Source: an uncultured Alphaproteobacteria bacterium
GTDB taxonomy: Bacteria > Pseudomonadota > Alphaproteobacteria > Geminicoccales > Geminicoccaceae
Length of the DNA stretch: 32,000 bases
Direction of reading: 5' to 3'
Assembly: GCA_963782885.1 (NCBI GenBank)
Contig: CAWALL010000008.1
Span: 698,400-730,399 of the forward strand
Below the pieces are notes generated by a model. It did not search any database and had not been told where the DNA came from. It saw only the letters and a list, made by a program, of their open reading frames with translations. The position numbers were made by a program, and so were the translations under genes. This document shows positions 1,423-21,202 of the stretch, piece by piece (positions within the stretch are counted from its first letter, which is position 1; every line of letters starts with the position of its first letter).

Positions 1423-3048
1423 AGAGCGTGCATCGGGGCTCTGGATCGGCGATAACTCTTCTGTGACAAAGGCTTAACGCGACGCAGAGGAGCTCCCCGA
1501 TGCCGACAGAGTGTAACCGCGACCTGTTCGGATTTGAAGCCGTCGAAGGACGCCAGGTGGTGGCCGCGTTCGACGGCGGGCAGGTGACCTCGGACGCCGG
1601 GGCGCTGCTGCTCGGGGCCGTGAACCGGGCGATCGGTCTGATGGGGCGTCTGGCCCGCTGTTTCGCCGACGGACGCATGCAGGAACTGGTCGAGCACGGT
1701 GTCGAGACCATGCTGATGCAGCGCATCTGCGGCATCGCGCTGGGCTACGAGGACCTGGTCGACCACGACGAGCTGCGCCATGATCCGGTGCTGGCGACCC
1801 TGGCCGGCAAGCTCGAGGCGCGGCGCAAGGACTGCGCGCCGCTGGCCGGCAAGAGCACCTTGAACCGGTTCGAGCATGCGCCGGCCGCGGCGCTCGACCG
1901 CTATCACAGGATCGGCCACGACCCGCGGGCGATCGAACAGCTGTTCGTCGCTCTGTTCCTGGAGGCGCATGCGAGGCCGCCCGAGCGGATCATCCTCGAT
2001 CTCGATGCCACGGACGACCCGCTCCACGGCCACCAGGAAGGGCGCTTCTTCCATGGCTACTACGACTGCCACTGCTATCTGCCGCTGTACGTCTTCTGCG
2101 GCCGCCACCTGCTGGCCGCCAAGCTCAGGCGCTCGAACATCGACGCGTCGGCCGGAGCCAAGGACGAGATCACACGCATCGTCGCCCAGATTCGTGAGAG
2201 CTGGCCTAGGGTCGAGATCCTGCTGCGGGCGGACTTTGGCTTCGCCCGCGACGAGTTGATGAGCTGGTGTGAAGACAACGGCGTCGACTACGTCTTCGGC
2301 CTCGCCCGCAACCCTCGCCTGCTGGCCGAGATCGACGGAGCCCTCGCGGCCGCCGAGGCCGAGCATGCCGCAACCGGCCAGCCGGCTCGGCAATTCGACG
2401 ACTTCACCTATGCCACCCGGGACAGCTGGAGCTGCGAACGGCGGGTCGTGGCCAAGGCCGAGCATCTGGCCAAGGGCTCCAACCCGCGCTTCGTGGTCAC
2501 CTCGCTGCCGCCGTCGGTGATCGACGGCCAAAGCCTCTACGAGCAGATCTACTGTGCCCGCGGCGAGATGGAAAACCGGATCAAGGAGCAGCAGCTTGAT
2601 CTGTTCGCCGATCGTACGTCAGCAGCGACGATACGGGCCAATCAGCTCAGGCTTTGGTTCGCCTCGTTCGCCTACGTGCTGCTGGAGGCGCTGCGCCGAA
2701 TTGGCCTCCGCCATAGCCAGTTCGCCAACGCCACCTGCGGCACGATCCGCCTGAAGCTCTTGAAGATCGGCGCCCTGGTCCGGGTCAGCGTGCGTCGGAT
2801 CAAGGTCGCCATGGCCTCGGCTTGCCCCTACCAGGACGAGTACCGCCTCGCCTACCTGTACGTGAAGCGCGCCGCCTTCTGAACGTTCTTGCATGCCTGA
2901 TAGGCGCCCCACCCGCGGGGCGTTCGCTTGCGTTCGTCCGAGAATTCGCTGTCAGGCGACCTCCACGGACGCTCACCTCAACCCGAGCCAACTTCTGCGC
3001 CGACCCCGCCACCAATCAACCCGTGCTATGGGGTTTGAGAAATCCGGA
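1406..3048 (+). mobile_element. IS1380-family insertion sequence, apparently intact (~1.64 kb)
   Basis: A single 460-aa DDE transposase ORF is bounded by a perfect 16-bp terminal inverted repeat: ccggatttctcaaacc at 1407-1422 and ggtttgagaaatccgg at 3032-3047. CTAA lies directly outside both ends (1402-1405 and 3049-3052). The size and 4-bp duplication fit IS1380-family behaviour. Confidence 0.9.
1500..2882 (+). CDS. IS1380 family transposase (DDE)
   Basis: 460-aa ORF. The N-terminus FGFEAVEGRQVVAAFDGGQVTSDAGALLL and the blocks LDLDATDDPLHGHQEGRFFHGYY and YCARGEMENRIKE are typical of IS1380/ISAzo-type transposases. Confidence 0.93.
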   Translation: MPTECNRDLFGFEAVEGRQVVAAFDGGQVTSDAGALLLGAVNRAIGLMGRLARCFADGRMQELVEHGVETMLMQRICGIALGYEDLVDHDELRHDPVLATLAGKLEARRKDCAPLAGKSTLNRFEHAPAAALDRYHRIGHDPRAIEQLFVALFLEAHARPPERIILDLDATDDPLHGHQEGRFFHGYYDCHCYLPLYVFCGRHLLAAKLRRSNIDASAGAKDEITRIVAQIRESWPRVEILLRADFGFARDELMSWCEDNGVDYVFGLARNPRLLAEIDGALAAAEAEHAATGQPARQFDDFTYATRDSWSCERRVVAKAEHLAKGSNPRFVVTSLPPSVIDGQSLYEQIYCARGEMENRIKEQQLDLFADRTSAATIRANQLRLWFASFAYVLLEALRRIGLRHSQFANATCGTIRLKLLKIGALVRVSVRRIKVAMASACPYQDEYRLAYLYVKRAAF

Positions 3049-3052
3049 CTAA
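3032..3052. repeat. Right terminal inverted repeat plus right target-site duplication (CTAA) of the IS1380-family element
   Basis: Read directly: ggtttgagaaatccgg-a-CTAAg. Confidence 0.8.
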
Positions 3053-3355
3053 GGTCCATGGCCCGGCTCCACCAGCCGGGGCAAAGGCGACCTTCGATGT
3101 CGGCGTGGGGCGCTGATTGGCTCCGGCGGCCGCAATCGGTGCGCAGGACGGGCCGATCAACTCGGCGCCAGCGGTCGGGGCACACGGTCAGCTGCCGCGG
3201 ATCCGAGCGAAGGGTCGTCCGGTCCTGGTCTCGGCCGCGGTGGACTCCAGCCGGTAGCCCTCAACGTCCGGCTTGTGGCGGGAAGGACCGTCAGGCCGCC
3301 TGGGCGATCGCGTAGCGGGGGCCTGAGCCGGCCGCCGCGGCGTCCAGGGAGCCAA

Positions 3356-3511
3356 TCAGCCGATCAGCAGGCCGACGATGATGCCGATCGCGAAGAACAG
3401 CCAGTGCTCCGGCGACCGGGTCCGCAGATAGGTCAAAAGGCTGCCGACGAAGCTGCTGGCCTGCTGGCCGAGATCGCCGTCGGCGCCGCTGCGTCGGTGG
3501 TAGGGGTCCAT
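3356..3511 (-). CDS. Small hypothetical membrane protein (51 aa, C-terminal TM helix)
   Basis: Internal ATG at 3511 of the 76-aa track ORF. It is preceded by a strong SD (AGGAGG, 7-nt spacer). Translation is MDPYHRRSGADGDLGQQASSFVGSLLTYLRTRSPEHWLFFAIGIIVGLLIG, with high GC3. I recognise no family. Confidence 0.45.
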   Translation of the reverse strand: MDPYHRRSGADGDLGQQASSFVGSLLTYLRTRSPEHWLFFAIGIIVGLLIG

Positions 3512-3598
3512 GGCGCGCCCTCCTCGATCGATCGCCCGTGCGCTCTCGAAGCCGCGCCTTTGTAGCAGCTGAGCGGCAGGCCGCAATCCGGTCGCCGA

Positions 3599-4237
3599 TC
3601 AGGCCAGCCGGCCGAGCACCTCCTCGGCCAGCGCGGCGATCTCGAGGCCGGCCGGGCTCCTGGGCGCGCTCTCGGCGACGCCTTGCCCGGCCGCGATCGA
3701 GGCCGCGAACGCCTGCCGATTGCCCAGGCAGGCGGCGGCGAGCGGCCAGCGCTGCTGCTCGATCTCGGCCCGGATCGCCTCGGCCGCGAGCCCGCGCGCC
3801 GGCACCCGGTTGAGCACCAGCAGCGCCTCGGTCTTGGCGGCCTCGGCGAGCTCGAGCGTGGTCCTCGAGGCCCAGAGGTCGAGCGCGTTCGGCTGGCAGG
3901 GCAGCAGCGCCAGGTCGGCCGCGCGCAGGGCGCTCCGGGCGTCGGTCTCGGCGTGCGGCGGGTTGTCGATCAGCACGAGGTCGAACTCCCGGCGCAGCCG
4001 GCCGACCTCGCCGCCGAGCCGCCAGCCCGACAGCCCCTGGACCACTAGCCCGCCCTCGTCCTCGCCCAGCCGCCGCCGGCGCAGGTTGAACCAGGTGAAC
4101 AGGCTCGCCTGCGGATCGATGTCGAGCATCGCGACCCGCCTGCCCATGGTCAGCCAGGCCACGCCGAGCTGGATCGCGAGCGTGGTCTTGCCGGCGCCGC
4201 CCTTCTGCTGCGCGATGCTCACGACGGCGCCGGTCAT
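3599..4237 (-). CDS. ParA/MinD-type P-loop ATPase (orphan ParA family protein)
   Basis: Deviant Walker A, QQKGGAGKTT, lies near the N-terminus, followed by LDIDPQ and VLIDNPP. The start is set at ATG 4237 (MTGAVVSIAQ), preceded by GGGAG. The track start at 4261 is also possible. No parB-like gene is adjacent. Confidence 0.85.
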   Translation of the reverse strand: MTGAVVSIAQQKGGAGKTTLAIQLGVAWLTMGRRVAMLDIDPQASLFTWFNLRRRRLGEDEGGLVVQGLSGWRLGGEVGRLRREFDLVLIDNPPHAETDARSALRAADLALLPCQPNALDLWASRTTLELAEAAKTEALLVLNRVPARGLAAEAIRAEIEQQRWPLAAACLGNRQAFAASIAAGQGVAESAPRSPAGLEIAALAEEVLGRLA

Positions 4238-4332
4238 CGGCACAGCGCTCCCGTCACCCAACCCTCACTCGAATGGTTAGCGGCTGCGCCAAACCGGCGC
4301 AAGACGTAGCTGCACCCGGCCGGCGCGCGCCT

Positions 4333-5373
4333 TCAGCCCGGGCCGCGGCGGGCCGCCTGCAGCCGCGCCTGCACCTTTTGATCCGCGACCGCCTGCGGGG
4401 TCTGGCCGGTGCGCGCGGCGGCGCCCAGGACCTCGGCCGCGATCCCCTCGATCCGGCCGACCGCGGCGAGCACGGCGTCGGACGAATCGTCGATCCGCTC
4501 CTGATGGAAATCGATCACGCCGCCGGCATTTGCGAGGTAGTCGGGCACATACAGGATGCCGCGCTCGGCGAGCATGGCGGCGTGGCGGCGGAGTGCCAGC
4601 TGGTTGTTGGCGCCGCCGCAGACGATCCGCGCCCGAAGCCGCGGGATGGTCAGGTCGTTGAGCACCGCGCCGAGCGCGCAGGGCGCGAACAGATCGACCT
4701 CCTGGTCGTAGACCGCCTCGGGCTCGACCGCTTGCGCCCCGAGTTCCCGGACCGCCTGCGCCACACGCGCCGGGTCGAGGTCGGCGACGATCAGCTCGGC
4801 GCCGGCCTCGTGGAGATAACCCGCGAGCGGCCGGCCGACGTTGCCGAGCCCCTGGATCGCGACCCTGAGGCCCTCGAGCCGGTCGCGGCCGGTCGCCTGG
4901 CGCACCGCCGCCCGGATCGCCATCAGCACGCCATAGGCGGTGACCGCGAGCGGCGCCCGCGCCGCCGTGGTCGCGGCTGCGGTGTGAGCGGTGACCTCGC
5001 GCATGACCACGAGGTCGTCGAGCGTCGTCCCGATGTCGTCGGCCACGATGTAGCGGCCGCCCAGCGCCTCGACGGCGCGACCCATCGCCCGCAGCAGCGC
5101 CGGCGTCTTGGCGCGTCTCGGATCGCCGATGATCACCGACTTGCCGCCGCCATAGGGCAGATCGCAGATCGCGGCCTTGTAGGTCATGCCGCGCGCCAGC
5201 CGGAGCGCATCGGTCAGCGCCTCGGCGCCGCTCGGATAGGGCCACATCCGGCAGCCGCCGAACGCCGGGCCGAGCGCGGTCGAATGCAGCGCGACGATCG
5301 CCCGCAGCCCGGCCGCGGGATCGGCTGCGAACACCACCTGCTCGTGAGCATCGAAATCCGGATGGTCGAACAT
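4333..5373 (-). CDS. Glu/Leu/Phe/Val dehydrogenase family protein (leucine/valine dehydrogenase-like)
   Basis: 346-aa ORF. It has the catalytic-Lys block YGGGKSVI and the Rossmann motif VAIQGLGNVG. The N-terminus GGCRMWPY is typical of short Leu/Phe dehydrogenases. Confidence 0.9.
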   Translation of the reverse strand: MFDHPDFDAHEQVVFAADPAAGLRAIVALHSTALGPAFGGCRMWPYPSGAEALTDALRLARGMTYKAAICDLPYGGGKSVIIGDPRRAKTPALLRAMGRAVEALGGRYIVADDIGTTLDDLVVMREVTAHTAAATTAARAPLAVTAYGVLMAIRAAVRQATGRDRLEGLRVAIQGLGNVGRPLAGYLHEAGAELIVADLDPARVAQAVRELGAQAVEPEAVYDQEVDLFAPCALGAVLNDLTIPRLRARIVCGGANNQLALRRHAAMLAERGILYVPDYLANAGGVIDFHQERIDDSSDAVLAAVGRIEGIAAEVLGAAARTGQTPQAVADQKVQARLQAARRGPG

Positions 5374-5557
5374 GGCCGCGGCTCCGCCAAGGTATCTGCG
5401 CTCTCGACTGTCCGCCCCGCGCTGTCAAGAATTGGTTGCTGCCTGCGGGTCGCGGCGATCTCGACCGCACGTCCGGGACGTGCCACCATCCGCGCCGCCG
5501 GCCGATCGGTCGGGGACCGGGGGAAAAGTGCGGTTCGCACGCGAAGGAGGAAACCTC

Positions 5558-5800
5558 ATGGGCATCATCTGGACACTGATCATCGGCCTGCTCGCCGGCA
5601 TCGTCGCCAAGCTCCTGATGCCGGGGCGCGACCCCGGCGGCTTCATCATCACGATGCTGCTCGGCGTCGCGGGCGCCTTCGTCGCCACCTACCTCGGCCA
5701 GGCGGTCGGCTGGTACCAGGCCAACCAGGGCGCGGGCTTCATCGGCGCCGTGGTCGGGGCGATCATCCTCCTGGTCATCTACCGCATGGTGAAGCGCTGA
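5558..5800 (+). CDS. GlsB/YeaQ/YmgE family stress-response membrane protein (80 aa)
   Basis: ATG 5558 is preceded by AAGGAGG (5544-5550). Translation MGIIWTLIIGLLAGIVAKLLMPGRDPGGFIITMLLGVAGAFV... is the family signature. The longer track ORF (from 5372) is an artefactual extension. Confidence 0.9.
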   Translation: MGIIWTLIIGLLAGIVAKLLMPGRDPGGFIITMLLGVAGAFVATYLGQAVGWYQANQGAGFIGAVVGAIILLVIYRMVKR

Positions 5801-5810
5801 TCCGAACGCC

Positions 5811-5850
5811 CGGCGACGATGCCCGGCCGCCAGCACGGCCGGCGTCGCCG
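5811..5850 (+). terminator. GC-rich stem-loop 10 nt after the GlsB-family stop codon (possible terminator, no U-tract)
   Basis: cggcgacg(atgc)ccggccg - ccagca - cggccggcgtcgccg gives 8+7 bp of pairing with a 4-nt bulge. There is no downstream T run, so intrinsic-terminator function is uncertain. Confidence 0.3.
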
Positions 5851-6240
5851 CGGCGGCCGGGTCATGACGCGGTCCCTCCGATCTGGACCGCGGCGGTAGC
5901 CGCCATCCCGGCGCGGACTCGACCGCTGCAGGCTGACGAGCAGACCTGCTAGCCGGAGGCTTCGATCGGCTTTTTCGCGACCCTGAACGGATATGGCGAG
6001 TTCGCGGGTTTGAGCCGTCATCGACCCTCCGAGGGGGCGTACCGGAAGCTAAACCGAGCCGCGGGCGGTGGCGAATCGGAACCGGTACAAACCTGAACGT
6101 TTCTGCAGAATGTTCTGATCACATCGGCCATCCTGCTGCATAGCCGATAAGACTAACGATCGCTTTTATTGGTCTTTTGTTTACTTTTGGCCATGTATGA
6201 TACCGCTACGCTACTTTGGTGAAGAGCAGCGGAGCTGACA

Positions 6241-7371
6241 GTGCCAACTCTGCAGCCGATCGGCAGCCAGCGCGGCATCTTGGCAACTCTGCTACTGATC
6301 CTCTTGTTCTGGATCGGCGGCTGCCAGTCGCTAGGGACCCCATCAGAAGGGATGGTCGGGCCTGACACCCGGTGGACCATCTCCGGGCGGGCCGGGCCGG
6401 TCTCGCTCCGATCCCCGGGTCAATCATTTTGGCAGAGGGCGATCGCCGGAGTGAGGATCGCTCCAGGTAGCGAGATTGCGACCTTCGATGGCAGTCGCCT
6501 CGAGCTGGCGAGCGCCGGTGACGAGGTGACGGCGTCCGGCCCGAGCCGTTTCACCCTGCCCGACTCCGAACGAAACGGCGTCCGGGTCCGTCAGGACGCC
6601 GGCAGTCTTCGTTACAAAGTGCAAAGCGCACCAAAGCGGCGCTTTGAGGTCAGGACGCCGCATTTCTCGACGGTCGTTAAAGGAACATCATTTCTAGTGT
6701 CCATCGATCGAACCAGCTCGGCGGTCGCCGTAGATGAAGGCCGGGTTGTGGTAGTCGATGCCGATGGAGAACCACTCGCAGAATTGACCCCCGGACAGAT
6801 TGGCCGGATGGCTGCCGAGCCTGGCGCGACGCTTCAAGTCACCACGGTTGCCGCCCCGACATTGGAGAGTACGGAGCCGGGGGCGGGACGCGAGGCGTCG
6901 GCTCATGGCACCACGGAGTCCCCCAAAACTGCGAGCGGCACAGACACCCCCCTCGCCGCGCCGCCGAACGAACCCGGCGCGCCCGCCGCCGAGCCTTCTT
7001 TCTTCGAACGCATCGAGAGCATCGTTGACGACTTGGCCGCGCAGCTCAGCAGTGCGGGCGCTCTGACCAGCGGGGCTGCCGAACCCGATCACGAGCGCGA
7101 GCAGGCGCAGCAGAGCAACGACGGCAACCCGTTCGGTGGCAGCCGTGGCAACGAGAACAGCGCCGGCCACGGTGGCAGGGGCGGTAAAGGGGGCAAAGGC
7201 AAAGGCGGCAATGGCCAGGGCAGGGGCCAGGGCCAGGGCAAAGGCCAGGGCAACGGCAAGGGCAACGGGCATGGCCACGGACCAGGCATAGGTGCCGCCG
7301 GCGGTCGCGCCCACATGATCCTGGACCGCGACGACCGAGGATATCTTATCGCCTCCAGCGAGCGCCATTGA
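6241..7371 (+). CDS. FecR-domain lipoprotein with a Gly/Lys/Gln-rich low-complexity C-terminal region
   Basis: GTG 6241 lies 6 nt after GGAG. The lipobox is LLFWIGGC. The FecR-type beta-sandwich block is FEVRTPHFSTVVKGTSFLVS...VAVDEGRVVVVD. The C-terminal region is GGRGGKGGKGKGGNGQGRGQGQGKGQGNGKGNGHGHG. Confidence 0.8.
   Translation: MPTLQPIGSQRGILATLLLILLFWIGGCQSLGTPSEGMVGPDTRWTISGRAGPVSLRSPGQSFWQRAIAGVRIAPGSEIATFDGSRLELASAGDEVTASGPSRFTLPDSERNGVRVRQDAGSLRYKVQSAPKRRFEVRTPHFSTVVKGTSFLVSIDRTSSAVAVDEGRVVVVDADGEPLAELTPGQIGRMAAEPGATLQVTTVAAPTLESTEPGAGREASAHGTTESPKTASGTDTPLAAPPNEPGAPAAEPSFFERIESIVDDLAAQLSSAGALTSGAAEPDHEREQAQQSNDGNPFGGSRGNENSAGHGGRGGKGGKGKGGNGQGRGQGQGKGQGNGKGNGHGHGPGIGAAGGRAHMILDRDDRGYLIASSERH
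7171..7283 (+). repeat. Coding low-complexity tandem repeat (GGC-AAR/CAG/AAC periodicity) inside the FecR-like gene
   Basis: Repeated ggcaaaggc / ggccagggc / ggcaacggc units encode G-K/Q/N dipeptide repeats. The antisense strand gives a spurious PW/PL-rich ORF. Confidence 0.6.
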
Positions 7372-7373
7372 AA

Positions 7374-10196
7374 ATGCGTCGTCAGCTCATTCTTGGGGCC
7401 ATTGGTGGTTTTGTCGCCGCGCTGTATCTGACCGGTGCGCTCGACTTTGTCGAACGCCATCTGCACGACCTCCGCAATGGCGTCCTCCCCCGCGCCGCCA
7501 GCGGTGAGATCGTCCTTGTGACGGTTGATCGCCAAAGCCTAGAACGACTGCCCGGGTGGCCATGGCCGCGAGCATATTACGGCACTGTGATTGAGCGGCT
7601 CATTGATGCCGGCGCGACCAAGATTGCGGTCGCGATCGATTTCAGCACGCCATCAGACGCTCAGAACGATCGACGTTTAGCCGCAGCCCTGGCGCGCGCC
7701 GGACCCCATCGGATAGCGCTTCCCGTGTTTCGCCAACTTGGCGAAGGCGACGAGGTTGACCACGTCGTCGAGCCGCTTGCCCTGTTCCGCCAACACTCGG
7801 CATTGGCATCGGCCGATCTGTGGCCGGACCAAGATGGTCTGGTCCGTCGTTTCGATGCCTATCAAAATGTGACGGGAGCCTCGATTCCGACCGTCCCCGA
7901 GTGGTTGCTGGGCGAATCAGAGAATCCAGCAAGGGGTAACCTCATCGATTTCAGCATCGAGCCCAGCACTGTCCCGCGCATCAGCTTTGCGGATGTGCTC
8001 GAAGGCAAATTCGACCTCACGCGGGTGGCAGGAAAACGCGTGCTCATCGGCGCCACCGCGGTCGAACTCGGGGACGAAGTCAGTGTCCCTCGCCACCGAA
8101 TGTTACCCGGCACCGTGTTGCAAGCCGTCATCGCGGAAACGATGCTTCAACAACGGGCCATCCGCACCCTCGGGGGTTGGCCTGTCGCCCTGCTTGGCGC
8201 CCTGATGGCGCTCGCCGTCGGCTGGCTCCTGGGCAAACTCGAGTGGCGCCGAGGCACGGCGCTGGTGGTCGCGGCCGTGACGCTCGTGCTATGCGTCGGC
8301 CTCGTGCTTCAGTTGACGGCAGCCATCTCGCTACAGACTTCACCGATCCTCCTGAACATCCTGCTGGCCGCGCTCGCCGGGCAGCTCGATCGTCAGGTCT
8401 CGACGATATTGGCGCAGCGTCTGGCTCTTCGGGGCAAAGACGCTCTTCTGGGCCGTCTGGTCAATAATGTGTTCGATGGCATTGTAGCGTTCGACGATCA
8501 AGGCAAGGTGTTGTCGTGGAACTGTGCTGCCGAGCACATGTTTGGTGACTCGACTGAACAGATCAAGGGACGGCCGCTAGGGGAGTTGTTGCCGCTCTTA
8601 CAGCACAGCCACGCCGCCGAGGGTACACGCACCCCGCGCGAGCTCGTTGCCAAACGAAGTGATGGCAGTCGCTTCCCCGTGGAGGTCGCGGTTAGCACCG
8701 CCGACATGGAAGGCGTGCGGATGGGGATTGCAGTTGTCCGGGACATCACGAAGCGCAAGGCGGACGAGGAACTCGCCCATCAAGCTCTTCACGACAGCCT
8801 GACCGGGCTGCCGAATCGAGCGTATCTGCTCAACCGGCTCGGGGAAATGATGGTCGACGTCGAGCGCTCGCGCGAGCCGTTCGCTCTGCTGATGGTCGAC
8901 CTCGACGGCTTCAAACAGATCAATGATCGGTTTGGCCACTCTACCGGCGACCTGGTCTTACGCGATCTCGCACCGCGCTTACAAGAACCTTTGCGCAGGG
9001 ACGATGTCGTCGCTCGGCTCGGTGGCGATGAATTCGCGATCCTGCTGTCGCCGCCGACCGACGCCAGCGCCTCCTTGGCGATCGCAGGTCGAATCAATCA
9101 TTGCTTGCGCCAACCCCTGCTGGTTGATCGGATGCGCTTCAGGCTGTCCGCAAGCATCGGCATCGCCCTCCATCCGCAGCATGGTCGTAAAGCCAGCCAT
9201 CTGCTGCGCCGCGCCGACGCGGCCATGTACACAGCCAAGCGCGATCGGCTCGTCCTGGCCCTGTACGACCCGGACTGCGAGGCGGCGATGATGGATGACT
9301 TCGTGCTGCGGGACGAGCTGGATCGGGCGATCCAGCAGGGCAATCTTTTGTTGCACTATCAGCCCAAGGTCGACGCCCGCACTCTGCGGCTTGTCGGACT
9401 GGAAGCATTGGTGCGCTGGCAGCACCCGGAGTATGGTCTGCTGCCGCCAGACAAGTTCATTCCGCTGGCGGAGGCCACCGATCTGATCCGACCCCTGACC
9501 GATTGGGTGTTGGATGCCGCAGTCCGCCAACAACGCCTGTGGTTTGAGCGCGGATACGACCTGGTTATTGCCGTCAATCTGTCTGCTAAATCAATTCGGG
9601 ACCCTCAGCTCGTCAATAGATTTCAGGCGGTCTGCGAACGATGGATGGTCCCGCCGGATCGGGTGATGCTAGAGATTACTGAAAGCGCGGTGATTTCGGA
9701 TCCCAAATGCGCTTCGCGAGTACTCAGGCGCCTGGCACGAATTGGCTGCAGGATCGCACTCGATGATTTTGGCACGGGTTATTCATCGCTCGTGCATTTG
9801 CAGACCCTGCCGATCAGTGAGCTCAAGATCGATCGTTCCTTTGTTGCATCGATGTCGACCGAGCAAAATGCCTCAACTATAGTTCAGACTATTATCAATC
9901 TGGCACATACCCTGGGAATGCAGGTCGTCGCTGAGGGCGTCGAGGACCGAGCAACATTCACCAAACTCACGGTGATCGGCTGCGATCAGATCCAAGGTTA
10001 TCTGTTTGGGCGACCGAGGGCCGCCGATGACCTGGAAGAATCACTCCTTGAAAGCTCGCGGTCATCTGGCTCGAGCGACCAGGCGGATCGGCCTAAGAGC
10101 AGACTTGCTGCACTCCTCGCCGCAAGAGTTGGTTCTCTCCGATGCCCACCGGTTGCAGAGTTGGAAGGGGCCTTGAACAAGCCGGGCGCGGCGTGA
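7374..10196 (+). CDS. CHASE2 sensor - TM - PAS - GGDEF - EAL protein (c-di-GMP cyclase/phosphodiesterase)
   Basis: ATG 7374 lies 2 nt after the FecR-like stop (a TTG at 7368 is also possible). The N-terminal periplasmic CHASE2-like region is followed by hydrophobic helices (about residues 270-340). The PAS block is FDGIVAFDDQGKVLSWNCAAEHMFG. GGDEF is intact (RLGGDEFAILL). EAL is intact (EALVRWQHP, DDFGTGYSS, KIDRSF, EGVE, QGY). Confidence 0.9.
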   Translation: MRRQLILGAIGGFVAALYLTGALDFVERHLHDLRNGVLPRAASGEIVLVTVDRQSLERLPGWPWPRAYYGTVIERLIDAGATKIAVAIDFSTPSDAQNDRRLAAALARAGPHRIALPVFRQLGEGDEVDHVVEPLALFRQHSALASADLWPDQDGLVRRFDAYQNVTGASIPTVPEWLLGESENPARGNLIDFSIEPSTVPRISFADVLEGKFDLTRVAGKRVLIGATAVELGDEVSVPRHRMLPGTVLQAVIAETMLQQRAIRTLGGWPVALLGALMALAVGWLLGKLEWRRGTALVVAAVTLVLCVGLVLQLTAAISLQTSPILLNILLAALAGQLDRQVSTILAQRLALRGKDALLGRLVNNVFDGIVAFDDQGKVLSWNCAAEHMFGDSTEQIKGRPLGELLPLLQHSHAAEGTRTPRELVAKRSDGSRFPVEVAVSTADMEGVRMGIAVVRDITKRKADEELAHQALHDSLTGLPNRAYLLNRLGEMMVDVERSREPFALLMVDLDGFKQINDRFGHSTGDLVLRDLAPRLQEPLRRDDVVARLGGDEFAILLSPPTDASASLAIAGRINHCLRQPLLVDRMRFRLSASIGIALHPQHGRKASHLLRRADAAMYTAKRDRLVLALYDPDCEAAMMDDFVLRDELDRAIQQGNLLLHYQPKVDARTLRLVGLEALVRWQHPEYGLLPPDKFIPLAEATDLIRPLTDWVLDAAVRQQRLWFERGYDLVIAVNLSAKSIRDPQLVNRFQAVCERWMVPPDRVMLEITESAVISDPKCASRVLRRLARIGCRIALDDFGTGYSSLVHLQTLPISELKIDRSFVASMSTEQNASTIVQTIINLAHTLGMQVVAEGVEDRATFTKLTVIGCDQIQGYLFGRPRAADDLEESLLESSRSSGSSDQADRPKSRLAALLAARVGSLRCPPVAELEGALNKPGAA

Positions 10197-13556: not shown

Positions 13557-14129
13557 TCACGACAAGCCGCTGACGGTTCGTGACCCGCCCGTCGGGTTCG
13601 CGCCACCCGGCCCGCCGGCCTTCGCCTCGCCGCCATCCTCTCGTCCGCCGCCGCCCCGGCTCTGCCAGTAGAGCTGCTGCTCCTCGGCGATGATCTCTTC
13701 GATCGCCTCGACAAACCGCAGATACGCCTGGTCCTCGTCCGCAATCTCCCGATAGGCGCCGGCGCCGTTGATGTAGAGACGATATTCGCGCTTCATCCGC
13801 TCCGACGCCTTGCGGTAGCCGAGCCAGATCTCATCGAAATTGCCGATCCGCTCGATCCCCTTGGCCAGGACCACGATCAGGCCGAGCGCGCCGGTGACGA
13901 GCTTCACCGGGAAGTTGGCCGGGATGATCTGGGCGGCGGTGGTGAGCCCGCCGGCCGCCAGCACCACGAACGCGAGCCACTGCGACCACTGTTTGTAGCG
14001 GCCGGCTTTCCGGGCGTACCAGTCGCGCTGATTTTCCAGATGCTCGCCGAGATACCGCTTGGCCCGCGCGACCCGCCCGGCCGTGCGGTCGTCGGTCGCC
14101 GCCTCCGTCAAGGTCGCTTCGTTGCCCAT
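13557..14129 (-). CDS. SLATT-domain (DUF4231) two-transmembrane putative effector protein, intact (190 aa)
   Basis: The N-terminal helix is HLENQRDWYARKAGRYKQWSQW. Two hydrophobic helices follow (LAFVVLAAGGLTTAAQII and LVTGALGLIVVLA). The family-typical post-TM helix is FDEIWLGYRKASERMKREYRLY. The tail is Gly-rich. The ATG lies 15 nt downstream of the STAND gene stop. Confidence 0.85.
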   Translation of the reverse strand: MGNEATLTEAATDDRTAGRVARAKRYLGEHLENQRDWYARKAGRYKQWSQWLAFVVLAAGGLTTAAQIIPANFPVKLVTGALGLIVVLAKGIERIGNFDEIWLGYRKASERMKREYRLYINGAGAYREIADEDQAYLRFVEAIEEIIAEEQQLYWQSRGGGGREDGGEAKAGGPGGANPTGGSRTVSGLS

Positions 14130-14144
14130 GGCGCCAATTCCCAG

Positions 14145-14873
14145 CTACCCGACCTCGGCTTCCAGCGCCTCGACCTCCGGCCGCCGCCGGCCGTAGCCGG
14201 TTTCTTCCACGAGCCGCCTCGCCTCGACGACCTGCTCGCGCCCCCTTTCCCGATCGCCCTCCGCGAGCGCGAGCCGGGCATATTCGAGATGGGCATCGCA
14301 CTGAAAGAGCCGCATCTCGGAGCGCCTTGCGATCCGCATCGCTTCGTCCAGATCCTGCTTGGCGGCCGGGAGATCGCAGGTCTCCCGGAACAGCCCCGCG
14401 CGCGCCAGCAAGCCACGTGGCAGGTAGTGCATCGTACCCGCTTGGCGCAGTCCGTCGACCGCTTGGTTGAGCTGCATCATGGCCTTTTTAAACTCGCCCA
14501 CCGCTAGCGCGGCCCGGCCAAGGGAGAGGTGACCTAGGCCGAGGTCGAGCAGCTTACGACTGCCACCCAGCACGACCTCGAGCGCATACGCCGCTCGCCC
14601 GCGCGCCTCAGCAGCCCGGCCCCGAGCGAGCAGCAGATCGCAATACCGATAGCTCGGGATTGAGTAGAGCCGTGGGAACTTCGGCTGCCGGGACACCTGC
14701 AGCGCCTCCGCCTCTTGGAGCAGTTCCTCCGCACGCGTCGGCTGGCCCGCTTGGTGCAGCGCATCCGACAAAGCTGTACGTAAATCCATGCGCCGAGCAA
14801 GGTCTTTACTGCGGTCGGCGAGGTCGAACTTCCATCTTCCCGATGGCCATTGCCTCGGCGATGTTGCCCAGCG
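14145..14873 (-). pseudogene. C-terminal fragment: TPR-like repeat sensor region
   Basis: It is back in the original frame: ...FDLADRSKDLARRMDLRTALSDALHQAGQPTRAEELLQEAEAL...LGRAALAVGEFKKAMMQLNQAVDGL...HLEYARLALAEGDRERGREQVVEARRLVEETGY. The stop is TAG at 14145-14147. Confidence 0.75.
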
Positions 14874-15018
14874 TCAGATGCAGCTCAGAGAGATTGTTTG
14901 CTCGAACGGCTGCTTCCTTGAAATCCTGCATCACGACGCACGCGTCGAGCGATGCTTTCATTGGCGGCACCGCGTCCCGCAGCCGTCCGAGCGCGCGGAG
15001 ATCGAATGGCGGCGGCAT
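14806..15018 (-). pseudogene. Frame-shifted internal TPR-like segment
   Basis: The alternative frame reads PPPFDLRALGRLRDAVPPMKASLDACVVMQDFKEAAVRANNLSELHLTLGNIAEAMAIG, which is plausible helical repeat sequence. The flanking frame has several stops across the same span. Confidence 0.65.
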
Positions 15019-15763
15019 TCAGCAGGAACGCCTGAGTCGGATTCAGTCAGCGTCGGCACTGGTTTCTCGAACGGCGGATCGAACAGGCCGGCGAGCGCCG
15101 CCAGATCCTGACCGAAGGCGCCGAGCTTCCTGGTGGCGTAGAACTCGTTCGTCCTGCTGATCCGCGCCCAGTACACCTTCTCAGCAGCTTCCTGATACCG
15201 TCCCGCTTGGCAACCGTGGTGCATCGCCTGGAACAGCAGCGCCATCTCGGTAAGCGTGTCGGGCAGCTCCTTAGCGCTGTCCCGCAGGAGCTCGTACAGC
15301 CGCCCGTGCCCCGCCCGCCACGCCTCCGGTTTTTCCGCCTTTAGCCGCTCCCCGAAATGCTCCCGCACCAGCGGATGCGCGTCGATCTCGTCGGGCGCGT
15401 GGTGGCTCGCCGGGGCGAACAGGCCCAGAAGCCGTAGGCTTTCGATTTCCTCTTTCCGGTCTTCCGATGAGAGAGCCACCAGATGTTCGGTGAGACCGGC
15501 GATCGCCGGCGGCTCTATCAGGGCGGCTATGGCTTTGGCATCGGCCGGGCGATCGAAAAGACCGAGAAGGGCGAGCAGATTGGCCTTGGGGCCGTCACCA
15601 AAGCGCTCGGCGAAGGCCTGCATAAGTCGACGGGGATGGCGGCCTTCCTTCAGCGGAATGTCGAGATCGGGGATGGCCTCGGCGCGGCGGATGTGGTGGT
15701 CGTGCCACAGGCCGATCCAGGCGCCAAGCAACTTAATGGCGTAGGCATGATTGCCGAAGGCTT
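14958..15763 (-). pseudogene. Middle fragment: NB-ARC GLPL-like / winged-helix region and first helical repeats
   Basis: It continues the frame of the N-terminal fragment once the IS is removed: (K)AFGNHAYAIKLLGAWIGLW...LLALLGLFDRP...MALLFQAMHHGCQAGRYQEAAEKVYW. The last ~20 codons (ECRRHSISARSDGCGTRCRQ) look out of frame. Confidence 0.75.
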
Positions 15764-15794
15764 TGACGGCAACTAGCTCTCCATGAGTTTCAGG
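15764..15794. repeat. Target-site duplication TGACGGCA (15764-15771) plus terminal inverted repeat (15772-15794) of the IS1595-family element
   Basis: Read directly from the sequence. Confidence 0.85.
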
Positions 15795-16834
15795 TAGCGC
15801 CAGCAGCGACGAGGCCGCGATAGGTGGTGGGGCGGGTCAGGACGGCATGCTGGATGACGCGGGCGAAGCGGTGGCTGATGCTCTTGGCGGTGCGGCGGTT
15901 GAAGCGGAAGACGTACTCGTCGAGATAGGCCGGCAGGTGCTTGTTCGAGACCGCGCCGTGGTGGGTGCCGAGCAGCCAACGCTTGGCGAGGCCGAACACC
16001 AGGTGGATCGCCGGCAGGCGCAGCGCGGCGTCGCCCCAGGCGGCGGCGAGGTTGATCGGCTGGTGGGCGTAGCCGGCGGCGGCGAGGCCAGTGTAGCCGG
16101 ACCAGCCATCGGTGGTCACGGTCGCGGGCTTGGCGACGTTTTCGCCGAGGAAGCCTTCGAGGCTCCGGGCCGAGACATCGGGCACGACGGCCAGCCTCAG
16201 CCGGCCCAGGCGGCACCCGCGGGCCTGGCCGCGGCCGGTCTCGACCGCGCCGGCGACCGTCGTCTTGCCGGCTGCGCCGCGGCCGGAGCGGCCGGGCCTG
16301 GGGCCACCGACATAGGTCTCGTCGGCCTCGACCTGCGCGCCAAGCGGCGCCCGCTCCGGGCGCACCATCGCGCGGCGGATCTTGTGCAGCCAGCTCCAGG
16401 CGGTCTGATAGCTGCCGAAGCCCATCTGGCGCTGGAGCTCCATCGCCGAGATCCCGCCCTTGCTCGAGGTCACCAGGTAGATCGCGAGGAACCACTTGGC
16501 GAGCCCGGTCTTGGTCTGCTCGAACAGGGTGCCGGCCAGGATCGAGTGCTGCTTGCCGCAGGCCGTGCACTCCTCGATCAGGCGTTTCTTGTGGCTGTAA
16601 GCCTGACCATGCCCGCAGCCCGCGCAGCGGAACCCCGCGGGCCAACGCGCCCGCACCAGATACGCCCGGCACTTGGCGTCCGTGCCGAAGCGCTTCAGGA
16701 AGCTCGGCAGATCGCGCGGCAGATCCGTCAGCAGCTCGTCGGCCATGGCACCCTCCCCACTATGTTCGCTCTTCGTTCACCCTCCTCCATCCTGCCGCCG
16801 GAGTCAAGCAGCCTGAGCCTTGTGGAGAGCTAGT
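15772..16834 (-). mobile_element. IS1595-family (ISXO2-like) insertion sequence, 1063 bp, inserted in the STAND gene
   Basis: It has a single 318-aa transposase ORF. The imperfect terminal inverted repeats match at 19 of 23 positions, with the first 12 perfect (actagctctcca). It is flanked by an exact 8-bp direct repeat, TGACGGCA, at 15764-15771 and 16835-16842. Confidence 0.9.
15790..16746 (-). CDS. IS1595 family transposase (N-terminal zinc-ribbon, ISXO2-like DDE domain)
   Basis: The zinc-ribbon region is FLKRFGTDAKCRAYLVRARWPAGFRCAGCGH...CTACGKQHSILAGTLFEQTK. Further blocks are KWFLAIYLVTSSKGGISAMELQRQMG and EADETYVGG. All are typical of the family. Confidence 0.93.
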   Translation of the reverse strand: MADELLTDLPRDLPSFLKRFGTDAKCRAYLVRARWPAGFRCAGCGHGQAYSHKKRLIEECTACGKQHSILAGTLFEQTKTGLAKWFLAIYLVTSSKGGISAMELQRQMGFGSYQTAWSWLHKIRRAMVRPERAPLGAQVEADETYVGGPRPGRSGRGAAGKTTVAGAVETGRGQARGCRLGRLRLAVVPDVSARSLEGFLGENVAKPATVTTDGWSGYTGLAAAGYAHQPINLAAAWGDAALRLPAIHLVFGLAKRWLLGTHHGAVSNKHLPAYLDEYVFRFNRRTAKSISHRFARVIQHAVLTRPTTYRGLVAAGAT

Positions 16835-16842
16835 TGACGGCA
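16812..16842. repeat. Terminal inverted repeat (16812-16834) plus target-site duplication TGACGGCA (16835-16842) of the IS1595-family element
   Basis: Read directly from the sequence. Confidence 0.85.
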
Positions 16843-18014
16843 TTTTCCAGCTCTTCGTCGGTCCCCTCGATCCCCGAAACTCGAAGCAGGGCGCGACCGC
16901 CAATGGTCGAGACCTGGTCGAGGTCGACCTGGCGGACGGCCGCCTTGATCTCGCCGTCGGCGAGGTCGGCGACCGGCTCGCGGGTGGTGATCACGCAGAG
17001 GCCGGGATTGCGCTTGGCCAGTTCGAACAGGAGAACTTCCAGGCCCGGGTCTTTGAGCTTGCCGCGATCGAAGGCGTGGCCGGATTGCAGGGGCTCCAGG
17101 CCATCGAGCAGGAGGAGCGTCCGCCGCCGCTGGATCAGCTCGGCGAGGCGGTGGCCGCGGTCCCAGGCGGAGAGCCCCGCGCCGGCGGTCTCGTCGCCGA
17201 AACGTTCGACCGCCTTGGCAATGAACTCGTCGCCCGAGGTCACGCGCTCGCCAGTGCCCTGGCTGTAGAACGACCAGGCGAAGACCCGCTCGGCGCCGCG
17301 GTAGTTGTCCTCGTCCATGGCCTCGCACCAGCAACGCACCAAGGTCGATTTCCCAACGCCACCCGACGCCTTGAGGACGACCAGGTTCAGCTCCTGATCG
17401 TCCCATGCCTTGTTGAGGAAGTTCAGCTCCTTCCGCCGGCCGAACAGCAAGTCGTCGCTCTGGGGCAGGCGCGTGATGTCGACCTCGGGCGCCGGACCGA
17501 CAGGGGCCGGTCGCTCGTGACCCTTGCCTGTTTCGAGGTAGGAGACGACTTGGCGGGCCACTTCGGCAAACACCTGATCCGGATCATGGGCGAAATGGGT
17601 CAGCACCGGCTTCGCGTCGCGCGGCAGGATCTGCCAGCGCTTCAGCCAAGGATGTCGCTGCCAGACACAATCACGGAGCAGAATCGGGAACAGCTCGAGT
17701 TTGCCCCGGTAGCGCTGCTGCAGCAGATAGGGGATCTCCTCGTCCATGCAGAACGACAAGTCGAGGAAGTCGGAAGAGATCAAGCAGACGGCGCAACAAC
17801 TCTTGCTCAGGATGTCTCTTATTCTGGCGTACCAATCAACTCCTGCCTTGATCTGCCGGTCATCCCACACCTGCAGGATACCGAGTCGCCCCAGCTGACT
17901 CAGATGTGGCAGCAGCCTGTCCTTCCACTCTTCGTCACCACCGTGGCTGTAGCTGACGAAGACGATCGGGGGCTCGTCGCCCGGCTGGTGCAGAGACTCG
18001 AGTTGGACGGCCAT
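16830..18014 (-). CDS. N-terminal fragment: TIR domain plus P-loop half of the NB-ARC NTPase (394-codon ORF ending at a stop supplied by the IS end)
   Basis: TIR motifs are IVFVSYSHGGDEEW, WDDRQIKAGVDW and LISSDFLDLSFCMDEEIPY (conserved Glu). Walker A is LKASGGVGKSTLV, Walker B is TLLLLDGLE, and sensor-1-like is LCVITTRE. The TAG at 16830-16832 lies inside the IS terminal repeat. Confidence 0.85.
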   Translation of the reverse strand: MAVQLESLHQPGDEPPIVFVSYSHGGDEEWKDRLLPHLSQLGRLGILQVWDDRQIKAGVDWYARIRDILSKSCCAVCLISSDFLDLSFCMDEEIPYLLQQRYRGKLELFPILLRDCVWQRHPWLKRWQILPRDAKPVLTHFAHDPDQVFAEVARQVVSYLETGKGHERPAPVGPAPEVDITRLPQSDDLLFGRRKELNFLNKAWDDQELNLVVLKASGGVGKSTLVRCWCEAMDEDNYRGAERVFAWSFYSQGTGERVTSGDEFIAKAVERFGDETAGAGLSAWDRGHRLAELIQRRRTLLLLDGLEPLQSGHAFDRGKLKDPGLEVLLFELAKRNPGLCVITTREPVADLADGEIKAAVRQVDLDQVSTIGGRALLRVSGIEGTDEELENAVN

Positions 18015-18117
18015 CGCTGAAATCCGGCCCGCTCACGATCGGAAGTTGATCGACCTCGTCAGAAAGCCATATCGTAGCGGGCAGGGCAAGCGGGCCGGGC
18101 CAGGCCCCGTGGCGCAC

Positions 18118-18137
18118 ATGCGTCACAAGTGACGCAT
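18118..18137. promoter_or_regulatory. Perfect palindrome ATGCGTCAC-AA-GTGACGCAT about 104 bp upstream of the TIR-STAND start codon (candidate operator)
   Basis: The 9-bp arms are exact reverse complements. The half-site TGACGCAT recurs at 18428-18435. No binding factor is known. Confidence 0.3.
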
Positions 18138-18444
18138 CAAGGCGACGGCGCCCGCGCTGAGAGGCAATGGAGCTCACCTTGAGGTTGATCCGATTTGACC
18201 GATTCCTGCCTTGAGAACCAACGCGAAGATATTCGCATTAACCTCCTATTTTTATGTGACAATATCAATTCACATGAAATCACTGGTATCAACTGCATCA
18301 ATCTAACCGGTGGCTCCAGGGCTTGATCCCTCCGAGCGGATCGGTCTCCCTATGATTAAGATGCTACACCTCATAGTTCTCGATGCGCCACTGATGCGAC
18401 ACGTGGCAATGAATCAGGCTACACTTCTGACGCATCGCAAGACG

Positions 18445-18460
18445 ATTGATCTCGATCAAT
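18445..18460. promoter_or_regulatory. Perfect 16-bp palindrome ATTGATCTCGATCAAT containing an exact FNR/FixK/Crp-family box TTGAT-N4-ATCAA
   Basis: The consensus match was read directly. It lies about 300 bp upstream of the ppsA start, in the divergent spacer. Confidence 0.35.
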
Positions 18461-18487
18461 TCAGTAGGGCGAATCGGTTTTGTCTGT

Positions 18488-18507
18488 ATTTTTCTGTTCA
18501 GAAAAAT
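18488..18507. promoter_or_regulatory. Perfect palindrome ATTTTTCTG-TT-CAGAAAAAT in the AT-rich spacer (operator or small hairpin)
   Basis: The 9-bp arms are exact reverse complements with a 2-nt centre. Confidence 0.25.
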
Positions 18508-18760
18508 CAGATCATTTGATCGATTCGCAGGCGAATTGGCTCCATATCGAATGTGATCAGGAGCCTGCGCGGGCATGGACGCTCGAATGAGGTCATCGGC
18601 AGGCTTGGTCGCGCATCAATCCGGGAGGCTGTGCGGTCGAGTTGAGCCGTCCGTTGATCGCCGGGCGAGGGCGGTGGACTTGACCCAGGTCAATGACCGG
18701 GGGGCGTGCCGGGCCGAGGTTGGCGCCCGCGATCCGCAACCGGGGAAGTGGGGGTGCGTC

Positions 18761-21202
<2,442 letters not shown>

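Follow-up and report, generated by a model that had tools for sequence, protein, structure and literature searches.

A predicted TIR-STAND-TPR and SLATT defence operon, inactivated by an insertion sequence, in an uncultured alphaproteobacterium

Introduction

An association of TIR domains with SLATT membrane proteins was predicted by Burroughs et al. in 2015 (as cited in PMC7159879), and TIR-SLATT gene neighbourhoods have been noted in phages (PMC9503650). Type VII Thoeris (Yirmiya et al., bioRxiv 10.64898/2025.12.03.692087) combines a TIR protein, ThsB, with a SLATT effector, ThsH, and protects both E. coli and B. subtilis from phages; on infection its TIR makes canonical cyclic ADP-ribose (cADPR), and added cADPR is toxic to cells that express the SLATT protein. 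Shaseng, a validated anti-phage system made of a SLATT protein and two TIR proteins, requires the TIR (bioRxiv 10.1101/2024.12.27.630466). Here we compare these systems with a two-gene locus in a 32,000-nucleotide stretch of DNA from an uncultured alphaproteobacterium of the Geminicoccaceae (contig CAWALL010000008.1, positions 698,400 to 730,399; the whole stretch is called the window below). The first gene encodes a TIR-STAND-TPR protein, which unites a TIR domain, a STAND P-loop NTPase and a TPR array, and the second a SLATT protein.

The sensor gene has the layout of Avs/AVAST proteins and other bacterial NLR-like STANDs (Gao 2022; Kibby 2023; PMC13581612), with an N-terminal effector, a STAND NTPase and a C-terminal TPR-like sensor, and the single-gene TIR-NLR of Rousset 2022 (PMC9122126) is among the closest known NLR-like sensors. 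SLATT goes unmentioned in large-scale STAND surveys (PMC13581612), and in the literature we searched there is no account of a STAND-fused TIR that works with a SLATT gene. TIR-STAND proteins paired with SLATT would have been missed by design, because the large TIR survey discarded TIRs in Avs proteins together with stand-alone TIR proteins (10.64898/2025.12.03.692087). The original prediction for this locus, made from the sequence, had called it an undescribed two-gene module. That went too far: the TIR plus SLATT combination was predicted in 2015 and has since been validated and named, and only its STAND-fused form is uncharacterised.

We find that the two genes lie in one operon, that the sensor has conserved catalytic-type residues, that SLATT proteins of this family recur beside TIR proteins in other genomes, and that the copy in the window has been inactivated. 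We put at roughly 0.6 the probability that the locus was a two-gene defence operon of the abortive-infection type, in which the TIR-STAND protein signalled to the SLATT protein. The finding is best filed as a fused-sensor variant of type VII Thoeris-like TIR plus SLATT signalling, with a sensor of the NLR/Avs type, and not as a wholly new system. Below, loci compared with the window carry L numbers and individual STAND homologues P numbers.

Architecture of the sensor gene

The STAND gene (18014 to 14145, minus strand) lies upstream of the SLATT gene (14129 to 13557), in the same direction. At intact length its product has about 931 residues, in the order TIR, STAND P-loop NTPase and TPR. In the window the 5' part is read as a 394-residue open reading frame (ORF; 16830-18014, minus strand), which is 83% identical to the intact orthologue P0004 over 393 residues, and the rest of the gene lies in three further minus-strand ORFs (14958-15731, 14806-15018 and 14145-14789).

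The TIR domain was identified correctly in the original prediction. The 394-residue ORF matches Pfam TIR_2 at 3.9e-12 (47 bits, cutoff 28) and the PADLOC model ThsB1 at 8.6e-25, with the motifs IVFVSYSH at 17943-17966 and SFCMDEEIPY at 17727-17756. The best match of the domain is the Thoeris ThsB model (PADLOC ThsB1, 1e-25 to 1e-27), not the CBASS TIR-effector models. In 31 homologues the glutamate of the C-x-x-E-E-I-P-Y segment is invariant or nearly so, and it aligns with the D-E of the Cat1 TIR.

The NTPase carries a Walker A motif, GGVGKST (17343-17363), a Walker B motif, LLLLDGLE (17094-17117), and two further motifs, CVITTRE (16977-16997) and FGNHAYAIKLLG (15723-15758). The Walker A GGVGK, the Walker B D-G-x-E and the arginine of the TTR motif are invariant or nearly so in the same 31 homologues. 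All matches to the Pfam NTPase models AAA_16, NACHT, NB-ARC and nSTAND1 fell under the gathering cutoff; for NB-ARC (PF00931) the scores were 18.3-21.3 bits against a cutoff of 23.5, and membership in that family was rejected on these results. A sequence search found no close solved STAND relative and matched the TIR and TPR pieces alone; we therefore used Foldseek to place the STAND core. In the AlphaFold2 model of P0004 (pLDDT 85) the TIR domain precedes an alpha/beta NTPase that includes helical and winged-helix modules, and helical repeats form an array that starts at about residue 630 and runs to the C-terminus. Against the PDB, this model matched an archaeal STAND-TPR protein (6mfv, 3e-12), the plant TIR-NLR RPP1 (3e-8; the similarity spans TIR and NOD) and Apaf-1 (3e-8), as well as CED-4, MalT and NRC4. 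The proposed NB-ARC/STAND assignment thus stands as STAND, by structure, but not as NB-ARC. On the modelled fold, which resembles Apaf-1, CED-4 and RPP1, the NTPase can be called no more than 'STAND, AP-ATPase-like'.

The TPR-like repeats that had been proposed are likewise present. The ORF at 14145-14789 scores 26.5 bits with TPR_14, above the cutoff of 23.5, and the model of P0004 shows the array; TPR_MalT (31.4 bits, cutoff 45) and TPR_12 (24.4 bits, cutoff 30.1) stay below cutoff in this ORF, as does TPR_10 in the 3' ORFs of the gene. The TIR-STAND-TPR architecture is solid.

PADLOC v2.0, run on the fragments and on the intact proteins P0004, P0001 and that of L003, returned TIR models only and no Avs or NLR model. 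Membership in a named Avs or bNACHT family was rejected on this result, and the STAND core matched no known PADLOC system. No NCBIfam model matched the STAND protein. With the repaired 931-residue protein as query, and with the 8000 candidates that share most words with it scored, at least 4791 relatives were found at E <= 1e-10. Those listed mostly have 905-996 residues, with a few longer and a few partial, are 49-77% identical to the query, and span many bacterial phyla and some archaea.

The SLATT protein

The second gene encodes an intact protein of 190 residues that matches DUF4231 (PF14015; 1.1e-14, 55.1 bits, cutoff 24.7), Pfam SLATT_1 (PF18181; 2.2e-6, 28.2 bits, cutoff 26.3) and NCBIfam SLATT_1 (NF033634; 9.3e-23, 80.6 bits, cutoff 41). 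Its AlphaFold2 model (pLDDT 81) is all-helical, with helices at residues 5-30, 34-68, 73-96, 98-120 and 132-162 that include a central two-helix hairpin and flanking helices; the C-terminal tail is glycine-rich and of low complexity. The three profile matches and the hairpin agree with the DUF4231/SLATT layout first read from the sequence. Across 167 homologues, 17 residues are invariant. Neither sequence nor fold comparison found a matching solved structure, and PADLOC gave only a weak '2TM effector' match (7e-4).

SLATT homologues and their TIR partners

A scan of one genome per species gave 62 loci with SLATT homologues 34-76% identical to that of the window, which we searched with a TIR profile built for this analysis. 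In 32 of the 62 loci a TIR ORF lies within 6 kb, and in about 24 the distance is no more than about 600 nt. These are raw counts: the flanks of STAND loci were dropped as a background for TIR frequency, being TIR-rich themselves.

The partners differ widely. By Pfam they include TIR-nSTAND1-WD40 proteins (L017, and L039 from Dankookia rubra), a TIR-nSTAND1-TPR protein (L019, Microvirga) and a TIR-nSTAND1 protein (L057). In L017, L019 and L039 the STAND gene directly follows the SLATT gene, the order opposite to that in the window; in L057 about 1.4 kb separates the SLATT gene from the TIR-nSTAND1 gene downstream. On the Methylobacterium indicum plasmid pVL1_5 (L156), a TIR-STAND-TPR gene annotated FxsT begins 40 nt after the gene of a SLATT protein 53% identical to that of the window, and a gene for a DUF4062-STAND-TPR protein precedes that SLATT gene divergently. 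Other partners are TIR-TPR-S, SIR2-TIR and TIR-only proteins, with patatin, SLOG or TPR-S genes alongside, and small TIR proteins are paired with a SLATT protein of the same family in L043, L051 and L157. This SLATT family thus adjoins STANDs of no fewer than three unrelated lineages (the window family, nSTAND1 and FxsT-like), in both gene orders. Our main argument follows from this list: because the TIR domain is the only element common to all the partners, the SLATT protein would respond to what the TIR does.

Three of these cases merit separate description. On pVL1_5 (NZ_AP024150.1, positions 2000-8327 of the locus) the SLATT gene lies between two genes for proteins of about 930 residues that RefSeq calls 'FxSxx-COOH system TPR protein (fxsT)', an annotation that probably hides a defence module. 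In Staphylococcus chromogenes (L157, NZ_CP031273.1, 3992-4830) a DUF4231/SLATT gene overlaps a gene for a 135-residue ThsB_TIR protein, a compact type VII Thoeris-like pair beside integrase and ImmA/HTH genes in a phage-like element. In alphaproteobacterial metagenome-assembled genomes (L020-L030 and L036) a TIR-FGE-sulfatase protein of about 530 residues is encoded divergently from the SLATT gene, about 350-600 nt upstream on the opposite strand. This divergent pairing is conserved in about ten species-level genomes and may be another uncharacterised arrangement of a TIR sensor with SLATT.

STAND homologues and the common locus

Intact versions of the window's pair, with the same 15-nt spacer, are found in L003 (923 and 183 residues) and in L072 (931 and 193 residues; an Illumina contig of the Joint Genome Institute, JGI), and broken versions in L001, L002, L004, L009, L010 and L038. 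The 15-nt gap after the TAG, part of the first reading of the locus, is present in the window and conserved in its relatives, identical or nearly so in L001, L002, L003, L004 and L072. All paired loci with enough flanking sequence occupy one common chromosomal site, between ppsA and the dehydrogenase gene. Spacer and orientation are kept there though the STAND alleles of the window, L003 and L072 are only 48-68% identical.

Away from this site the STAND homologues have other neighbours. Downstream of P0001 (a STAND 73% identical to that of the window) comes BrnT/BrnA, downstream of P0002 (71%) a gene for an FAA hydrolase, and the neighbours of P0006, P0057 and the archaeal P0021 are unrelated; none of the five is accompanied by this SLATT. 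The idea that the STAND family is generally paired with SLATT was therefore rejected: the homologues examined outside the syntenic locus lack this SLATT. Genes that occasionally follow STAND homologues encode a patatin (L096) or an extra TIR (L076). In L085 (1-5671) there is an apparent three-gene operon, in which a window-family TIR-STAND gene is followed 9 nt later by a gene for a 310-residue tandem-SLATT protein and then by a second TIR-STAND gene, cut by the contig end. No window-family STAND was found on plasmids.

In L077 (6164-9739) a 1192-residue TIR-PNP_UDP_1-NACHT-TPR protein, with two N-terminal nucleotide-targeting domains, is encoded directly 3' of a window-family STAND homologue.

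Divergence at the locus

Comparison with close relatives gave different histories for the two genes. In L002 both flanks are 96-99% identical to those of the window, and most of the STAND gene cannot be aligned. In L001 identity is 95% from the middle of the STAND gene through the SLATT gene and beyond, and about 71% in the 5' half of the STAND gene. Synonymous divergence (dS) between the window and L072 is 0.21 for the SLATT gene, 0.30 for the flanking dehydrogenase gene and 0.60-0.78 for the STAND gene; among relatives the ranges are 0.17-0.22, 0.30-0.35 and 0.6-0.95. STAND dS is thus two to four times that of SLATT and of the dehydrogenase. The N-terminal half of the STAND gene is under clear purifying selection, with a ratio of nonsynonymous to synonymous divergence (dN/dS) of 0.15-0.18. 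Judged by these values, the STAND gene acts like a cassette that is exchanged beside a resident SLATT gene.

Inactivation of the window copy

The STAND gene of the window is split by an insertion sequence (IS) of the IS1595 family (Table 1). All the marks of the family are present: the transposase with its zinc ribbon, the inverted repeats and an 8-bp target duplication. When the IS and one copy of the duplication are excised, ...EELENAV is joined in frame to KAFGNHAYAIKLLG..., as in intact homologues, and the in-frame sequence ...ENAVKAFGNHAYAIKLLG... is regained. The excision restores the frame and three +1 shifts explain the remaining breaks, so that the ORF fragments do belong to one gene, as had been supposed.

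A 99.6% identical copy of the IS lies at 14275-15277 of the close relative L002, beside a FecR gene; the L002 STAND gene itself has no IS. The presence of a nearly identical element at another site in L002 indicates that it was recently active in this population. No copies were found in plasmids.

The three shifts displace about 70 codons of the TPR region, and none of them sits in a homopolymer run. All neighbouring genes of the window that we checked are full length, unlike the related long-read contigs L001, L002 and L004, which are full of split genes. Because the shifts lie outside homopolymers and the neighbours are intact, we read them as probably real mutations, and we think that they reflect decay after or alongside the IS insertion rather than assembly error. 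The STAND gene in the window is a pseudogene and the module a relic, with the SLATT ORF alone intact.

Setting of the operon

The module lies on the minus strand between ppsA and a block of lipoprotein, 2-hydroxyacid dehydrogenase and peptidase-C39-TPR genes, a housekeeping setting with no recognisable defence island around it. Its GC content is 0.64-0.68, against 0.74-0.80 in the left flank and 0.67-0.69 in ppsA; the module was said to be less GC-rich than both flanks, which is true of the left flank but not of ppsA. The operon promoter is presumed to lie in the intergenic region that separates the STAND start from the divergent ppsA. A scan of that region (18015-18574) for a sigma-70 consensus promoter found none, and a promoter and terminator scan of the STAND-SLATT operon gave nothing informative. 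At the other end, the stop of the SLATT gene directly abuts that of a convergent small lipoprotein ORF, with zero spacer (13556/13557), and no terminator-like structure was detected at these convergent stops. An unrelated transposase gene (DDE_Tnp_1_4, 2.6e-154, 460 residues) lies at 1500-2882 of the window, about 11 kb from the module.

Table 1 Features of the TIR-STAND-TPR and SLATT locus (positions in the window)
Feature	Positions	Strand	Remarks
SLATT_1/DUF4231 two-transmembrane protein	13557-14129	minus	190 residues, intact; putative membrane effector
Spacer, 15 nt	14130-14144	minus	From STAND TAG (14145-14147) to SLATT ATG; TAG-CTGGGAATTGGCGCC-ATG, read directly
STAND gene, 3' portion	14145-15770	minus	Winged-helix/helical domains and TPR sensor; residues ~391-931 of intact orthologues (tblastn, P0004 and P0001)
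Frameshift zone	14806-15057	minus	Three +1 frame changes at ~15040, ~15015 and ~14820; internal stops (three-frame translation, alignment to L001 and P0001/P0004)
Target-site duplication, copy 1	15763-15770		8 bp, GCCGTCAA on the minus strand
IS1595-family insertion sequence	15771-16833	minus	1063 bp; imperfect terminal inverted repeats; splits STAND after codon 393
IS transposase ORF	15790-16746	minus	318 residues; DDE_Tnp_IS1595 3.4e-30, Zn_ribbon_IS1595 3.3e-10 (N-terminal zinc ribbon)
Target-site duplication, copy 2	16834-16841		8-bp direct duplication GCCGTCAA
STAND gene, 5' portion	16842-18014	minus	TIR domain (17643-17963) and P-loop NTPase core
Divergent intergenic region, STAND start/ppsA	18015-18574		GC ~0.57, the window minimum
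ppsA	18575-21202	plus	Flanks the module on the STAND-start side

Discussion

In its intact form the operon would work as follows. The TPR array would bind a phage protein, as Avs and other STAND sensors of bacteria suggest. Binding would lift autoinhibition, and the NTPase, whose Walker A and B motifs are invariant, would drive oligomerisation. The clustered TIR domains would then form active sites and convert NAD+ to a messenger derived from ADP-ribose, most probably a cADPR isomer if type VII Thoeris is a guide. As suggested by type VII Thoeris, Shaseng and the SLATT proteins of CBASS, the messenger would cause the SLATT protein to oligomerise and breach the inner membrane, and the cell would be killed or arrested before phage release. 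For the order of events first proposed, the half that leads from TIR to SLATT has experimental precedent in type VII Thoeris and Shaseng, but gating of SLATT by a drop in NAD+ found no support. The defence-type reading itself is favoured by the recurrence of this SLATT subfamily beside TIR sensors, independent TIR-STANDs included, but the copy in the window cannot work.

Several observations weigh against this reading. The function of the exact TIR-STAND and SLATT pair is a prediction, and the copy in hand is non-functional, carrying both an IS and frameshifts. The SLATT protein of the window is likened to ThsH by their shared 'SLATT' annotation only (sequences of validated ThsH are IMG 2745918372, M1t6BS2105N_136545922 and 2850952262). 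The 190-residue protein has no recognisable separate ligand-binding domain. Among close relatives dN/dS is 0.6-0.75 in the SLATT gene and 0.25-0.31 in the adjacent 2-hydroxyacid dehydrogenase gene; the high SLATT value may reflect either arms-race (positive) selection or relaxed constraint. Conserved pairing in other genomes was found in part: the pair is intact in L003 and L072, and TIR genes accompany about half of the SLATT loci, but the STAND homologues examined otherwise do without this SLATT. Apart from the syntenic L072, those homologues (38-79% identical) all lack it, and a SLATT of the window type is absent from all 61 metagenome loci, L091 (79%) among them, in which 600 nt or more follow the STAND gene, though one has a tandem SLATT of another kind. 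The STAND family can therefore do without SLATT, and its TIR could be a terminal NADase.

These last counts bear on the simplest alternative, in which the TIR-STAND-TPR protein is an autonomous, single-gene depleter of NAD+ of the Avs/NLR kind and the SLATT protein an orphan effector, or one with an unrelated role. The window-family homologues examined are solo genes, the closest included, with the syntenic L072 set aside; the dS of the SLATT gene (0.17-0.22) looks like that of a resident, against 0.6-0.95 for the STAND gene, so that their histories are not shared; and 30 of the 62 SLATT loci have no TIR within 6 kb. Nevertheless, the 15-nt spacer and the orientation have survived replacement of the STAND allele, the TIR neighbours of SLATT_1 proteins come from three or more unrelated STAND lineages and from many other fusions, in both orders, and experiments on type VII Thoeris and Shaseng already show TIR and SLATT to be coupled. 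We consider full independence of the two genes unlikely. That most STAND homologues are solo does imply that the TIR-STAND-TPR protein is probably self-sufficient and able to act alone; it probably also acts by itself through NAD+ depletion, SLATT being a trans effector added in one lineage.

Coupling could also take place without a diffusible nucleotide, by direct contact with the TIR-STAND protein at the membrane or by sensing of the fall in NAD+. The want of a separate ligand-binding domain in SLATT would suit such a mechanism, as would the alignment between the window and L003, where the stretch for the last ~130 residues of the STAND protein and the SLATT gene align at ~85% nucleotide identity and the rest of the STAND gene does not, as would suit a conserved contact surface. 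Yet the dS of those C-terminal 130 residues is 0.6-0.78, against 0.17-0.21 for SLATT, and the TIR partners of the SLATT family otherwise differ fully (FGE-sulfatase, WD40, TPR-S, nSTAND1), so that the shared element is the TIR and its product. Added cADPR alone, moreover, is toxic to cells with type VII Thoeris (10.64898/2025.12.03.692087), and we regard contact or NAD+ sensing as quite improbable. Still another role, outside phage defence, would be that of an NTP-dependent 'conflict system' in kin discrimination or programmed cell death of social or multicellular bacteria, or in signalling: STAND and GTPase systems with TIR and SLATT are enriched in multicellular prokaryotes (Kaur et al. 2020, PMC7159879), and the surroundings here are housekeeping genes rather than a defence island. 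Such a role is highly improbable, given that all tested TIR plus SLATT or TIR-STAND systems in the literature searched act against phage, and that costly immune genes typically undergo allele swapping and inactivation by IS elements.

A defence operon with TIR-STAND signalling to SLATT, which we prefer, shares with type VII Thoeris and Shaseng the arrangement of TIR and SLATT genes, a TIR with the catalytic-type glutamate and ThsB as its best model, and a small two-transmembrane SLATT without a separate sensor domain. As in type VII Thoeris, the SLATT gene adjoins the TIR gene in an operon, 15 nt away on the same strand (also in L003 and L072). Unlike the small ThsB, the TIR of the window is the N-terminal domain of a 931-residue STAND NTPase-TPR protein. 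The pair is not type VII Thoeris as defined, because its TIR is fused to a STAND and Avs TIRs were excluded there. With Avs-type STANDs the sensor shares invariant Walker motifs, and most window-family homologues are likewise single genes. However, it matches no PADLOC Avs or NLR model and falls below every Pfam STAND threshold, and whereas classical Avs proteins carry their effector fused in cis, the window's lineage has a dedicated membrane effector gene downstream. CBASS and the DRT10/UG17 reverse-transcriptase systems also use two-transmembrane SLATT effectors, whose predicted action is to damage the membrane in response to a nucleotide-type signal; here the partner is a TIR-STAND instead, and the ORFs scanned at and around the locus include neither a CD-NTase (SMODS) nor a reverse transcriptase. 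In plant TIR-NLR immunity (TNL, a TIR-made nucleotide signal, then EDS1 and a helper-NLR Ca2+ channel) the output of a receptor TIR likewise acts by way of a separate protein that permeabilises the membrane. SLATT and helper NLRs are unrelated, there is no EDS1-like adaptor, and the sensor is TPR and not LRR; the likeness is one of logic only.

The practical importance of the copy in this window is low because its sensor gene is a pseudogene. Since the STAND-fused form recurs in several lineages, the class deserves testing. It is possible, though we hold the idea tentatively and at somewhat less than even odds, that there is a recurrent class of TIR-NLRs that are signal generators and not terminal NADases, in which a messenger of the cADPR family opens a separate SLATT protein, in at least three STAND lineages, with a resident SLATT serving as a 'socket' for exchanged TIR-STAND cassettes. 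If true, this would join NLR/Avs receptors, with their effector in cis, to the second-messenger signalling of Thoeris, with its small TIR and trans effector. Bacterial NLRs would then use a diffusible TIR product to signal to a membrane effector, like plant TIR-NLRs, and the pair would offer a tractable bacterial model of plant TIR-NLR logic.

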